Shown one piece after another: positions 5,665 to 6,686 of a DNA stretch of 64,000 nt (position 1 is its first letter; every line of letters starts with the position of its first letter). The notes under the pieces are model-generated. The model saw nothing but the letters and a program-made list of their open reading frames with translations, was not told the DNA's origin and ran no database searches. Source of the DNA: Escherichia phage vB_EcoM_SA21RB; sequence record OL960580; one strand, 5' to 3'. A program made the position numbers and the translations under genes.

Positions 5665-5740
5665 TGGTCGAGGCAGTAGGGATCGAACCTACGACCTAGG
5701 ACTTAGAAGGTCCTTGCTCTTCCTTCTGAGCTATGCCCCG
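5665..5740 (-). tRNA. tRNA-Arg (anticodon UCU)
   Basis: Manual cloverleaf: acceptor CGGGGCA/TGCCTCG, anticodon loop CTTCTAA, T-loop TTCGATC, CCA encoded. Confidence 0.8.
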
Positions 5741-5744
5741 TAAT

Positions 5745-5820
5745 TGGGGTGACCGATGGGAGTCGAACCCATGACTACGAGAATCACAATCTCGAGTTCT
5801 ACCAACTGAACTACGGCCAC
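5745..5820 (-). tRNA. tRNA-His (anticodon GUG)
   Basis: Manual cloverleaf: acceptor GTGGCCG/CGGTCAC, anticodon loop TTGTGAT, T-loop TTCGACT, CCA encoded; no encoded G-1. Confidence 0.6.
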
Positions 5821-5934
5821 ATTAATACCTACTCCAACAATCAAGATGTCTTCACACGAAATTAAGAGAAGAGTGATCAGTTCAACCCCGATAATCGCGT
5901 CAAGTAGATATTAATGTGACAGTTGTCACAAATT

Positions 5935-6009
5935 TGGCGGACGTGATAGGATTCGAACCTATAACCAATCGCTTAACAGGCGATCGCTCTGCCATTGAGC
6001 TACACATCC
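5935..6009 (-). tRNA. tRNA-Asn (anticodon GUU)
   Basis: Manual cloverleaf: acceptor GGATGTG/CACGTCC, anticodon loop CTGTTAA, T-loop TTCGAAT, CCA encoded. Confidence 0.7.
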
Positions 6010-6013
6010 AAAT

Positions 6014-6100
6014 TGGTGGGGAGTGATGGAGTCGAACCACCCGAGTCGCAATGACAATGGATTTACAGTCCACACCGCTACCTCTACGGGATAACTCCCC
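6014..6100 (-). tRNA. tRNA-Tyr (anticodon GUA), class II with long variable arm
   Basis: Manual fold: acceptor GGGGAGT/ACTCCCC, anticodon loop CTGTAAA, T-loop TTCGACT, 87 nt, CCA encoded. Confidence 0.65.
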
Positions 6101-6113
6101 TTAATTCTTAATT

Positions 6114-6188
6114 TGGTGGCCCTGGGTGGAATTGAACCACCATCTGGCGATTATGAGTCGCTTGCTTGAACCTTCCAGCTACAGGGCC
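6114..6188 (-). tRNA. tRNA with anticodon CAU; by position the T4 tRNA-Ile (lysidine type) homolog, Met not excluded
   Basis: Manual cloverleaf: acceptor GGCCCTG/CAGGGCC, anticodon loop CTCATAA, T-loop TTCAATT, CCA encoded. Confidence 0.7.
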
Positions 6189-6189
6189 T

Positions 6190-6265
6190 TGGTGCTGATT
6201 GACGGAATCGAACCGCCGACCTTCTCATTACAAGTGAGTTGCTCTACCTACTGAGCTAAATCAGC
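6190..6265 (-). tRNA. tRNA-Thr (anticodon UGU)
   Basis: Manual cloverleaf: acceptor GCTGATT/AATCAGC, anticodon loop CTTGTAA, T-loop TTCGATT, CCA encoded. Confidence 0.8.
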
Positions 6266-6270
6266 AAAAC

Positions 6271-6360
6271 TGGCGGAGGCGATAGGATTTGAACCTATGA
6301 GTCGCCGGAGCGACTGCCGGTTTTCAAGACCGGTGCATTAAACCACTCTGCCACGCCTCC
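6271..6360 (-). tRNA. tRNA-Ser (anticodon UGA), class II
   Basis: Manual fold: acceptor GGAGGCG/CGCCTCC, anticodon loop CTTGAAA, long variable arm, T-loop TTCAAAT, 90 nt. Confidence 0.8.
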
Positions 6361-6362
6361 AG

Positions 6363-6436
6363 TCTCCATACAAGGATTTGAACCTTGGACCTCCTGATCC
6401 CAAATCAGGCGCTCTACCAAACTGAGCTACACGGAG
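6363..6436 (-). tRNA. tRNA-Pro (anticodon UGG), CCA not encoded
   Basis: Manual cloverleaf: acceptor CTCCGTG/TATGGAG, anticodon loop TTTGGGA, T-loop TTCAAAT; 2 nt from tRNA-Ser, consistent with a dimeric precursor. Confidence 0.75.
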
Positions 6437-6446
6437 TAAATTAAAT

Positions 6447-6520
6447 TGGAGCGGATAATGAGAATCGAACTCACATCATCAGATTGGAAGTCTGAGGTAA
6501 TGCCATTATACGATATCCGC
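6447..6520 (-). tRNA. tRNA-Gly (anticodon UCC)
   Basis: Manual cloverleaf: acceptor GCGGATA/TATCCGC, anticodon loop CTTCCAA, T-loop TTCGATT, CCA encoded. Confidence 0.8.
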
Positions 6521-6525
6521 AAATT

Positions 6526-6612
6526 TGGTGCGAGAAGTGGGACTCGAACCCACAAGGAAATCATTCCGCAGCATTTTAAGTGCTGTGCCTTTACCAATTT
6601 GACCATTCTCGC
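6526..6612 (-). tRNA. tRNA-Leu (anticodon UAA), class II
   Basis: Manual fold: acceptor GCGAGAA/TTCTCGC, anticodon loop CTTAAAA, long variable arm, T-loop TTCGAGT, CCA encoded. Confidence 0.8.
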
Positions 6613-6613
6613 G

Positions 6614-6686
6614 CTGGGAATAAAGGACTCGAACCTTTGCATCCTGGAATCAAAATCCAGTGCCTTACCAACTTGGCTAATTCCCA
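6614..6686 (-). tRNA. tRNA-Gln (anticodon UUG), CCA not encoded, 1 nt from tRNA-Leu
   Basis: Manual cloverleaf: acceptor TGGGAAT/ATTCCCA (U1-A72), anticodon loop TTTTGAT, T-loop TTCGAGT. Confidence 0.8.

Follow-up and report, generated by a model that had tools for sequence, protein, structure and literature searches.

An eleven-tRNA array of the segB-free T-even type in Escherichia phage vB_EcoM_SA21RB, with a tRNA-His gene that lacks an encoded G-1

Among the closest described systems is the tRNA region of phage T4 (NC_000866, 70.9-72.5 kb), in which the genes for tRNA-Gln, Leu, Gly, Pro, Ser, Thr and Ile are followed by segB, tRNA-Arg, rnaD and rnaC. T4-type tRNA regions have been described as non-essential (PMC2330249), and a statistical association of segB with tRNA genes has been reported (PMC13096335). 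In T2L, RB1 and RB3 (EMBL AJ880101, AJ884577 and AJ884578; Brok-Volchanskaya et al. 2008, PMC2330249) the locus is free of segB; as judged from the primer coordinates given in that paper, T2L has trna.1 upstream of the gene for a tRNA with a CAU anticodon, tRNA-Asn followed directly by tRNA-Arg with no tRNA-His, and trna.2 between tRNA-Arg and rnaD. T6 carries a tRNA-Tyr gene in this locus with segB beside it, and has fewer tRNAs than the phage studied here; the part of T6 examined yielded no genes for tRNA-Pro, Ser, Asn or His. The T6 tRNA-Tyr counters the Septu defence and is itself cut by Septu; T6 without its tRNA region is more sensitive, and T4, which has no tRNA-Tyr, cannot escape (Chihara et al. 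2026, PMC13096335). A fourth system is found in BF23 and T5, BF23 belonging to the Demerecviridae: there a leader of about 105 nt, whose ends form a 15-bp helix reaching a T at position -1, precedes a tRNA-His with G1-C72 and C73 (AJ604530). The BF23 record starts tRNA-His at this T and annotates the leader as a stable 'RNA III', an annotation made for BF23 only.

We analysed a stretch of 64,000 nucleotides (hereafter, the window) from Escherichia phage vB_EcoM_SA21RB (OL960580), a Tequatrovirus which is 98.3% identical to Escherichia phage vB_EcoM-101117BS1. ARAGORN identified 11 tRNA genes and no others in the window; they occupy the minus strand between positions 5665 and 6686, and all 11 exceed the gathering score of 29 bits that served as the membership cut-off for the Rfam tRNA model (RF00005). 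Scores range from 30.2 to 74.1 bits; ten genes fall between 59 and 74 bits, and tRNA-Tyr is lowest. A first-pass annotation, which had named an ARAGORN run as its check, had proposed these eleven genes, identical in order and span, with tRNA-Tyr, Asn and His lying between the CAU gene and tRNA-Arg, and both programs agree with it. It had also stated that T4 encodes eight tRNAs, as the T4 map shows, and had named the presence of the same 11 genes in T4 as the finding that would speak against its account; T4 has eight, but the comparison was too narrow, and other relatives share the array. Phages vB_EcoM-101117BS1 (MZ234018), Aplg8 (KT184308), Sf22, AR1 and ACG-C40 carry all eleven genes, likewise ordered, at 96-98% identity. 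The array is carried by about 190-240 phage records, is kept at no less than 95% identity in hundreds of isolates, and is annotated in many public genomes, of which that of Aplg8 also annotates rnaC, rnaD and a terminator. The array is thus already known as a standard annotated feature of T2/T6/RB-like Tequatroviruses, and its tRNA-Tyr/Asn/CAU/Arg part has been in the literature since 2008, for T2L, RB1 and RB3 (PMC2330249); the novelty implied in the first-pass annotation does not stand.

The 11 genes are intact and follow one another head to tail on the same strand, and the coordinates given for RNA features here and below all refer to the minus strand. tRNA-Gln(UUG) (6613-6686; 67.4 bits) is 89% identical to its T4 counterpart, with the anticodon stem replaced. 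It is followed by tRNA-Leu(UAA) (6526-6612; 100% identical to T4), tRNA-Gly(UCC) (6447-6520; 98.6%), tRNA-Pro(UGG) (6362-6436; 100%), the class II tRNA-Ser(UGA) (6271-6360; 96.7%) and tRNA-Thr(UGU) (6190-6265; 96.1%). Then come the CAU tRNA (6114-6188), which is 63% identical to T4 tRNA-Ile, the class II tRNA-Tyr(GUA) (6014-6100), which is 97.7% identical (85/87) to that of T6, tRNA-Asn(GUU) (5935-6009; 74.1 bits), tRNA-His(GUG) (5745-5820; 65.1 bits) and tRNA-Arg(UCU) (5665-5740), which is 63% identical to that of T4. A small palindromic hairpin, TGTGAC-AACT-GTCACA (5915-5930), stands just after tRNA-Asn. The cloverleaves of tRNA-Tyr, Asn and His are regular in the ARAGORN folds, that of tRNA-Tyr having a long variable arm and one mismatch in the D stem. 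We considered whether tRNA-Tyr is a pseudogene and rejected this: its cloverleaf is complete but for that mismatch, the near-identical T6 gene is expressed and active (PMC13096335), and relatives occur in rV5-like and T5-like phages.

Downstream of tRNA-Arg lie homologues of rnaD (T4 species 2 stable RNA; 5544-5663, 88% identical to T4) and rnaC (T4 species 1 stable RNA; 5399-5537, 97.8%), and an intrinsic-terminator-like hairpin with a T run (5316-5348) closes the tRNA/stable-RNA unit. The map position is that of T4, with an internal-protein gene and trna.x open reading frames upstream and e.x open reading frames downstream; the internal virion protein is encoded at 8225-8512. Strand and the order of the eight shared specificities are likewise as in T4, and six of those eight genes are 89-100% identical. 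On this evidence, and with none found against it, we identify the locus with high confidence as a T-even-type (Tequatrovirus) tRNA/stable-RNA cluster that has the segB-free T2/RB-type layout with a tRNA-His module added.

Encoded CCA ends are present in nine of the 11 genes and absent in tRNA-Gln and tRNA-Pro. A single base (C, 6613) separates the discriminator of tRNA-Gln from the first base of tRNA-Leu, and two (CT) separate that of tRNA-Pro from tRNA-Ser; both the missing CCA and this spacing, as given in the first-pass annotation, were borne out. The genes for tRNA-Thr and the CAU tRNA are also 1 nt apart, so that Gln-Leu, Pro-Ser and Thr-Ile are close-packed as in T4. Spacing of 0-2 nt, together with the missing CCA of tRNA-Gln and tRNA-Pro, is consistent with dimeric precursors, as far as sequence can suggest this. 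By reference to T4 biology, the unit would be transcribed as a polycistronic precursor and processed by host enzymes (RNase P for the 5' ends, together with RNase E/III and exonucleases); Gln-Leu, Pro-Ser and Thr-Ile would pass through dimeric intermediates, and the CCA-adding enzyme would complete tRNA-Gln and tRNA-Pro.

The CAU tRNA had been called Ile-type, and the closest E. coli gene agrees: it is tRNA-Ile(CAU), annotated as tRNA-Ile, with 81.6% identity over the full length and an identical anticodon stem-loop. The acceptor stem, GGCCCTG/CAGGGCC, includes C4-G69 and C5-G68, which are reportedly determinants for TilS. The CAU tRNA is of the Ile2 type, and is thus predicted to bear lysidine at position 34, to read AUA after this modification and to be charged with isoleucine.

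Several features set the locus apart from that of T4. It has no segB: 5741-6113 holds no open reading frame of segB size, and homology to the T4 gene is absent. The match with T4 is lost within the CAU gene (at about 6169) and taken up again within tRNA-Arg (at about 5710), and the 3' part of the CAU gene, tRNA-Tyr, tRNA-Asn, a structured leader, tRNA-His and the 5' part of tRNA-Arg stand where T4 has the 3' part of tRNA-Ile, segB and the 5' part of tRNA-Arg. The CAU gene and tRNA-Arg are the two poorly conserved members of the set shared with T4, the CAU and tRNA-Ser genes have an encoded CCA which their T4 counterparts lack, and the anticodon stem of tRNA-Gln differs. With T2L, RB1 and RB3 the window has in common the absence of segB, the alleles of CAU (there called 'Met'), tRNA-Tyr, Asn and Arg, and the CCAG end of tRNA-Ser (in T2L; PMC2330249). 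The window's alleles of these four tRNA genes (CAU, Tyr, Asn, Arg) fit the primers published for T2L, primers #5 and #11 matching the CAU gene and primer #7 matching tRNA-Arg exactly. Again as judged from primer coordinates, the window differs from T2L in having tRNA-Thr and the leader-His module and in having no trna.2. Most 11-tRNA relatives, MZ234018 not among them, have a 366-bp insert with the trna.2 open reading frame between tRNA-Arg and rnaD, which the window lacks, and some have a homing endonuclease gene within the array; the presence of segB, of other homing endonucleases and of trna.2 varies among near-identical phages.

The window shares one further feature with T2L, RB1 and RB3, a preferred SegB site in tRNA-Asn. 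The 27-bp site, GGTTCGAATCCTATCACGTCCGCCAAA (5933-5959, minus strand), lies at the 3' end of the gene and fits the description in PMC2330249: it has the GGTTCRANTCC motif, CCAR, and G6, A16, G18, A26 and A27, and the equivalent 27-mer of tRNA-Ser differs from it at exactly these five positions, as that paper states. Since tRNA-Asn holds this site, the locus would be a recipient allele, which a co-infecting segB+ phage would convert. The SegB-driven amplification described for T6 (PMC13096335) cannot act in cis in the window, because segB is absent from the locus.

What tRNA-Tyr, Asn and His do for the phage can be read in more than one way. By analogy with the near-identical T6 gene, which does so against Septu, tRNA-Tyr would refill a pool destroyed by host defences. 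This role may extend to tRNA-Asn and tRNA-His, which together with tRNA-Tyr make up three of the four targets of colicin-E5-type nucleases (QUN anticodons), colicin E5 cutting tRNA-Tyr, tRNA-His, tRNA-Asn and tRNA-Asp (PMC1635277). Taken to its limit, this reading holds that the three genes serve only as spare copies of nuclease-destroyed tRNAs (tRNA-Tyr against Septu and retron-Eco7, the whole QUN set against colicin E5-like enzymes). It gains from the rescue of T6 from Septu by a tRNA-Tyr 97.7% identical to that of the window (PMC13096335), from the circulation of closely related tRNA-Tyr genes in unrelated families of coliphages (rV5-like phages, with 95.7% identity, and T5-like phages, with 85%), and from the failure of codon demand to explain tRNA-His. 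On the other side, no Asn- or His-specific nuclease tied to T-even infection was found in the literature examined, the fourth E5 target, tRNA-Asp, is absent from the window according to ARAGORN, and tRNA-Asn and tRNA-Tyr are also the best candidates for codon supply. Moreover, the anticodon loop of tRNA-His matches that of E. coli, and the loops of tRNA-Tyr and tRNA-Asn are presumably also the same as their E. coli counterparts; an E5-like nuclease would therefore cut all three, and protection would come by supply and not by resistance. We regard an exclusively anti-defence role as a possibility that falls short of being probable.

Codon supply was assessed by comparing 58 open reading frames of the window (64 kb of phage sequence only) with 40 E. 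coli genes, all values being given per 1000 codons. AAT shows the largest excess of any codon (43.3 in the phage versus 13.4 in E. coli), and it and TAT (32.5 versus 13.1) are both among the six largest. Other codons in excess are AGA (10.7 versus 0.8), ATA (14.6 versus 2.3), GGA (23.4 versus 5.6) and TTA (30.9 versus 10.5), and overall the codons read by ten of the 11 tRNAs are enriched 1.7- to 13-fold. The eight T4-type tRNAs, with tRNA-Asn and tRNA-Tyr, would thus decode A/U-ending or AT-rich codons that are over-used relative to E. coli. The exception is histidine, whose codons the phage uses less than E. coli does (CAT 9.3 versus 12.1, CAC 3.6 versus 12.3), so that tRNA-His is unexplained by codon supply. 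These counts fit a supply role for tRNA-Asn and tRNA-Tyr and not for tRNA-His. It could be argued that all eleven tRNAs are kept purely for codons which an AT-rich phage over-uses and its host decodes poorly, and the ten enriched codon sets speak for this; besides the depletion of His codons, however, T4 does well without tRNA-Tyr, Asn and His, the tRNA region has been described as non-essential, as noted above, and the phenotype of the T6 tRNA-Tyr is specific to defence (PMC13096335). We therefore consider codon compensation unlikely as the sole explanation.

The tRNA-His gene calls for separate treatment. It has G1-C72, C73, an encoded CCA and the GUG anticodon, and it shares its first three base pairs with E. 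coli tRNA-His; only the canonical bacterial G-1 opposite C73 is not encoded. The base at -1 (5821) is T, where E. coli hisR has G, and that at -2 is A. Reading the G at 5820 as G-1 was rejected, as this shift of register disrupts both the T stem and the seventh acceptor pair and would have CCC stand in place of CCA. In bacteria, RNase P as a rule cuts between -2 and -1 and so keeps G-1 paired with C73 in an acceptor stem of 8 bp; E. coli HisRS relies on G-1, the loss of which reduces charging more than 100-fold (PMC5499578). The first-pass annotation had called the missing G-1 unusual. Against bacteria this holds, but it is no peculiarity of this phage: T stands at -1 in every examined member of a phage tRNA-His family that extends over T4-like, T5-like, FelixO1-like, rV5-like and Bxz1-like phages. 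Nor do all phage tRNA-His genes lack G-1. Among 119 pattern-matched genes from IMG/VR, G stands at -1 in 108, of which 24 belong to phage tRNA clusters, and T in 11.

The spacer between tRNA-Asn and tRNA-His is 114 nt long and structured. We considered it as a promoter or a decayed tRNA and rejected both in favour of a conserved structured leader; a consensus scan found no minus-strand promoter in it, and a permissive search found no Rfam family. The leader (5821-5915, 95 nt) is closed by a perfect 14-bp helix, formed by 5915-5902 with 5834-5821, whose last base is the T at -1. In nine Tevenvirinae sequences, 99.2% of the cells of the helix alignment are paired and five pairs have changed on both sides, a covariation score reached by none of 500 shuffles. 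The architecture is the same as that of the RNA III-tRNA-His unit of BF23 and T5, although the leaders have no detectable sequence similarity, and T4-like and T5-like phages alike conserve a leader helix of 10-15 bp that ends exactly at -1. Genes with T at -1 and no helix also occur, in Catera, L029 and L039 (with 1-nt spacers) and in CR9. A search of a limited collection of papers for phage tRNA-His without G-1, or for the RNA III of T5/BF23, returned no relevant account. The search did turn up nematode mitochondrial tRNA-His without a nucleotide at -1, and no phage case.

A more speculative reading, which we hold to be less than probable, is that a widespread phage tRNA-His family has abandoned the encoded G-1 and invariably has U-1, and that in T4-like and T5-like phages the leader helix is a dedicated device for processing the 5' end. 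This would amount to a way of securing histidine identity, or else to a role of tRNA-His outside translation, that has not been described for bacteria. Two modes of action may be envisaged: a staggered, RNase III-type cut between -2 and -1 would leave a 5'-phosphorylated U-1, a geometry that the annotated ends of BF23 RNA III have; alternatively, the helix would enforce canonical RNase P cleavage and yield tRNA-His without G-1. More generally, tRNA-His might not be a normal translational tRNA, being poorly charged and acting instead as a nuclease decoy or regulator, or it might undergo a non-standard maturation directed by the leader helix. The T at -1 in the family, set against the G of E. 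coli and of the G-type phage genes, the covarying helix that stops exactly there, the depletion of His codons, and the annotation of BF23 tRNA-His from the -1 T behind a stable RNA III all point in this direction; the retention of every canonical feature, C73 and CCA included, and the T(-1) genes that have no helix argue against it, and we consider such a departure doubtful.

That the array is passenger DNA in a recombination hotspot, its modules shuffled with little selective value by homing endonucleases and by homologous recombination between conserved tRNA segments, is the least plausible reading and in our view an improbable one, for although the locus is a mosaic in which T4-like, T2L-like and Jiaodavirus-like segments join inside tRNA genes, with a SegB target in tRNA-Asn, endonuclease and trna.2 genes that come and go, and the reported association of segB with tRNA genes, each of the 11 genes has a full cloverleaf and scores high against the model, compensatory changes in the stems are seen in the tRNA-His and tRNA-Tyr families from one phage family to another, and the array is so closely conserved among isolates.

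Our preferred reading remains that of a segB-free T-even cluster extended by a tRNA-His module. As such, the array is useful mainly as a correct annotation, parts of which have published roles in codon supply, as a SegB homing target and, through tRNA-Tyr, against Septu; it would mark the phage as a segB-free recipient allele carrying a putative anti-Septu tRNA-Tyr. The tRNA-His could matter more, since the form without G-1 is conserved in many virulent phages that infect enterobacteria, aeromonads and mycobacteria, often behind a covarying helix that ends at -1. Explaining it would bear on the rules of tRNA identity, on the choice of cleavage sites by RNase P and RNase III, and on the reasons for which phages keep a tRNA whose codon family they under-use.

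We found exactly 11 tRNA genes in the 64-kb window using ARAGORN, every one on the minus strand, spanning 5665-6686 in the order Gln(UUG), Leu(UAA), Gly(UCC), Pro(UGG), Ser(UGA), Thr(UGU), CAU, Tyr(GUA), Asn(GUU), His(GUG) and Arg(UCU). All 11 also score, independently of ARAGORN, above the gathering score of the Rfam tRNA covariance model, ten of them at 59-74 bits and tRNA-Tyr at 30.2 bits. tRNA-Tyr belongs to class II and has a single D-stem mismatch; its cloverleaf, like those of tRNA-Asn and tRNA-His, is complete in ARAGORN. Intergenic spacers are 0-13 nt long, the sole exception being the 114-nt gap between Asn and His. 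The Gln and Pro genes encode no CCA and lie 1 nt and 2 nt, respectively, from the next gene; the remaining nine genes encode CCA. The tRNA-His gene has G1-C72 and C73, with T at -1 and A at -2. The first-pass annotation had proposed these eleven minus-strand genes with their order and span, on which both programs agree, and the flanks read as it described them: Gln and Pro without encoded CCA and 1-2 nt from the next tRNA, and His without encoded G-1. It did not mention the single base that separates Thr from the CAU gene. The eleven-tRNA array is real and was correctly read.

The T4 map, in line with the first-pass annotation, gives eight tRNA genes and not the same 11: Gln-Leu-Gly-Pro-Ser-Thr-Ile, then segB (a homing endonuclease gene), Arg, rnaD and rnaC. 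Homology to T4, already present upstream of Gln, lasts until 20 nt into the CAU gene (about 6169) and returns 30 nt inside Arg (about 5710), continuing through homologues of rnaD (about 5663-5544, minus strand, 88% identity to T4) and rnaC (5537-5399, minus strand, 97.8%); a terminator hairpin lies at 5348-5316 on the same strand. Identity to the T4 counterpart is 100% for Leu and Pro, 98.6% for Gly, 96.7% for Ser, 96.1% for Thr, 89% for Gln, in which the anticodon stem is replaced, and 63% for both the CAU and Arg genes. CCA is encoded by the Ser and CAU genes of the window, whereas T4 Ser and Ile lack it. The tRNA-Gln gene (6613-6686) departs from T4 and T6 tRNA-Gln in the anticodon arm only (CTGGATTTTGATTCCAG versus AGCACTTTGACTGCT), a clean stem swap, as the rest of the gene is identical to both. 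ORFs around the array encode phage proteins of unknown function and an internal virion protein, matching the T4 map. Downstream of rnaC, two adjacent minus-strand ORFs (4109-4672 and 4797-5270; 187 and 157 aa) both match phrog_2280, a family of unknown function, which suggests a tandem duplication.

The array is already known, and is widely annotated in T2/T6/RB-type Tequatroviruses. Region 5200-7000 matches 1141 phage records, led by Tequatrovirus (T4-like) coliphages at 96-98% identity, and at least 80% of it is covered in 238 records. The nearest relative, vB_EcoM-101117BS1 (MZ234018), is colinear with this region at 98.3%, and its annotation lists these eleven tRNAs; Aplg8 (KT184308) has the same eleven annotated with anticodons, followed downstream by rnaD, rnaC and the terminator. 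The block comprising Tyr, Asn and the spacer is covered over at least 80% of its length in 195 records, and His with its flanks is found at 99% identity or more in 187; RB14, AR1 and ACG-C40 are among the well-known genomes that have Tyr and Asn. Most relatives have an additional 366 bp between Arg and rnaD; this insert holds a small ORF and is absent from the window and from MZ234018. The missing segment corresponds to window 5660-5665 versus 1960-2323 of a comparison phage locus (L002), and its ORF is the 'trna.2' of T2L, about 110 aa; in the window, Arg is followed by AACAA and then directly by rnaD.

Brok-Volchanskaya et al. 2008, who sequenced the tRNA loci of T2L, RB1 and RB3, found no segB in them; these loci have genes for a 'tRNA-Met' (CAU), for Tyr and Asn and for an Arg isoacceptor, as well as the ORFs trna.1 and trna.2 (PMC2330249). 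Of the published T2L primers, those designed on CAU, Tyr, Asn and Arg fit the window with zero or one mismatch, and the trna.2 primer fits an ORF that is present in Aplg8 and missing from the window (primers from PMC2330249). The preferred 27-bp site of SegB was mapped within tRNA-Asn, with GGTTCRANTCC at its 5' end and CCAR at its 3' end; what sets it apart from the Ser site is G6, A16, G18, A26 and A27 (PMC2330249). The Asn 27-mer of the window (5959-5933, GGTTCGAATCCTATCACGTCCGCCAAA) agrees with all published features of the site, and the Ser 27-mer of the window differs from it at exactly these five positions, which argues, at the level of sequence, that the locus is a segB-free recipient allele.

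The CAU tRNA (6114-6188) has as its top match a gene annotated as tRNA-Ile in 5423 of 5426 E. coli genomes (81.6% identity over the full length), with the same anticodon stem-loop. Its acceptor stem, GGCCCTG/CAGGGCC, gives C4-G69 and C5-G68, the TilS determinants. An Ile-type identity, as had been suggested, is supported by this resemblance.

Codon usage in the window was taken from 58 long ORFs (18,725 codons) and compared with that of 15,005 codons from 40 annotated E. coli genes. The most phage-enriched codons are those read by the eight T4-type tRNAs: per 1000 codons, window versus E. coli, AGA (Arg) 10.7 and 0.8, ATA (Ile, CAU) 14.6 and 2.3, GGA (Gly) 23.4 and 5.6, ACA (Thr) 20.8 and 5.4, TCA (Ser) 20.6 and 5.7, TTA (Leu) 30.9 and 10.5, CCA (Pro) 16.8 and 8.3, and CAA (Gln) 23.5 and 14.1. 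The excess of AAT (Asn; 43.3 and 13.4) ranks first among all codons and that of TAT (Tyr; 32.5 and 13.1) sixth, so that tRNA-Asn and tRNA-Tyr fit codon supply as well as the defence-buffering role shown for tRNA-Tyr. Codon supply does not fit tRNA-His, because CAT (9.3 and 12.1) and CAC (3.6 and 12.3) are both depleted in the phage. The anticodon loop of tRNA-His is the same as in E. coli, as those of tRNA-Tyr and tRNA-Asn presumably are, and any anti-nuclease benefit would thus come from supply.

That phage tRNAs offset tRNA-cleaving defences has already been proposed (PMC10264068), and colicin E5 has four tRNA substrates, Tyr, Asn and His among them (PMC1635277). The Septu defence cuts the variable arm of tRNA-Tyr; T6 tRNA-Tyr at raised expression rescues infection, T6 without its tRNA region is more sensitive, and T4, which lacks tRNA-Tyr, fails to escape (Chihara et al. 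2026, PMC13096335). T6 tRNA-Tyr, which is itself cut by Septu, helps through supply (PMC13096335); the window tRNA-Tyr is identical to it at 85 of 87 positions. The tRNA-Tyr gene (6014-6100) also shares 95.7% identity with its counterpart in rV5-like myoviruses and about 85% with the one in T5-like siphoviruses, and thus circulates among unrelated enterobacterial phage families; it is labelled 'tRNA-OTHER' in several records.

G-1 is encoded in nearly all bacteria, with U-2, G-1 and C73 directing RNase P to cleave tRNA-His at -2/-1 (PMC5499578); the hisR gene of E. coli carries G-1. The window gene is not of this canonical type, having A-2 and T-1 with C73 kept. We found T at -1 in every homologous phage tRNA-His examined: in Tevenvirinae (Tequatro-, Jiaoda-, Karam-, Moon-, Winkler- and Kanagawavirus), Aeromonas and Vibrio straboviruses, CR9 (Vequintavirinae), wV8 and Sf17 (Ounavirinae), BF23 and Proteus phage 1 (Demerecviridae), and mycobacteriophage Catera. 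An IMG/VR pattern scan gave at least 120 tRNA-His loci; of the 119 readable genes among the matches listed, 108 have G at -1, 11 have T and none has A or C. All 11 T(-1) genes among the matches listed lie in tRNA clusters, as do 24 G(-1) genes. With G(-1) genes prevailing among the matches listed, some of them in clusters, absence of G-1 is a trait of one phage tRNA-His family and not of phage tRNA-His generally. At -1, phage tRNA-His genes divide into two classes, G and T, as surveyed in the window (5821) and in comparison loci L005-L012 and L016-L147; the G class resembles the bacterial gene and mostly has T at -2. Among wV8 (L137, EU877232; gene at 264-339) and other Felixounavirus records in GenBank, several label the T(-1) tRNA-His of FelixO1-like phages 'tRNA-OTHER' or pseudo-tRNA.

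A small perfect palindrome, TGTGAC-AACT-GTCACA (5915-5930, minus strand), sits at the point where the T2L-like module meets the His module, with the CCA of tRNA-Asn on one side and the beginning of the His leader helix on the other. Within the Asn-His spacer, 5915-5902 pairs with 5834-5821 (minus strand) in a perfect 14-bp helix whose 3' strand terminates on the T at -1 (5821). The helix finishes precisely at -1 in all Tevenvirinae examined, with PEi20 at -3, and is kept despite an unrelated interior (Merlin, Moon) or none (PEi20, a 28-nt hairpin); it is also found in Aeromonas phages Ahp1 and Aeh1, Proteus phage 1 and BF23. Closing helices of 10-15 bp occur in the window and in comparison loci L005, L006, L007, L008, L010, L016, L067, L133, L136 and L141-L147. 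Among the matches listed, the longest comparable stem in about 95 G(-1) leaders is 11 bp, seen once, and otherwise at most 9 bp. T(-1) genes without the helix are those of Catera, L029 and L039, each with a 1-nt spacer, and CR9.

Across nine distinct Tevenvirinae leaders, which are mutually related and for which the 5' strand register was picked with pairing in view, 99.2% of cells are paired, both sides have changed in five of the 14 helix pairs, and the covariation score was reached in none of 500 shuffles; sliding the partner strand out of register reduces pairing to 36-53%. Compensatory changes preserve the helix across Tevenvirinae genera, and this covariation, like the mostly shorter stems of G(-1) leaders, is evidence that it is real. 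Helices of equivalent architecture occur in Aeromonas straboviruses and T5-like phages. In the BF23 record (AJ604530) the leader is annotated as 'RNA III, stable RNA with unknown functions' and tRNA-His starts at the T at -1; taking these annotated ends, the helix finishes in a 3' overhang of 2 nt, a geometry that would be RNase III-like. In the literature searched, nothing relevant was found on phage tRNA-His without G-1 or on RNA III of T5/BF23. In these comparisons, a phage family of U-1, G-1-less tRNA-His genes is coupled to a covarying leader helix.
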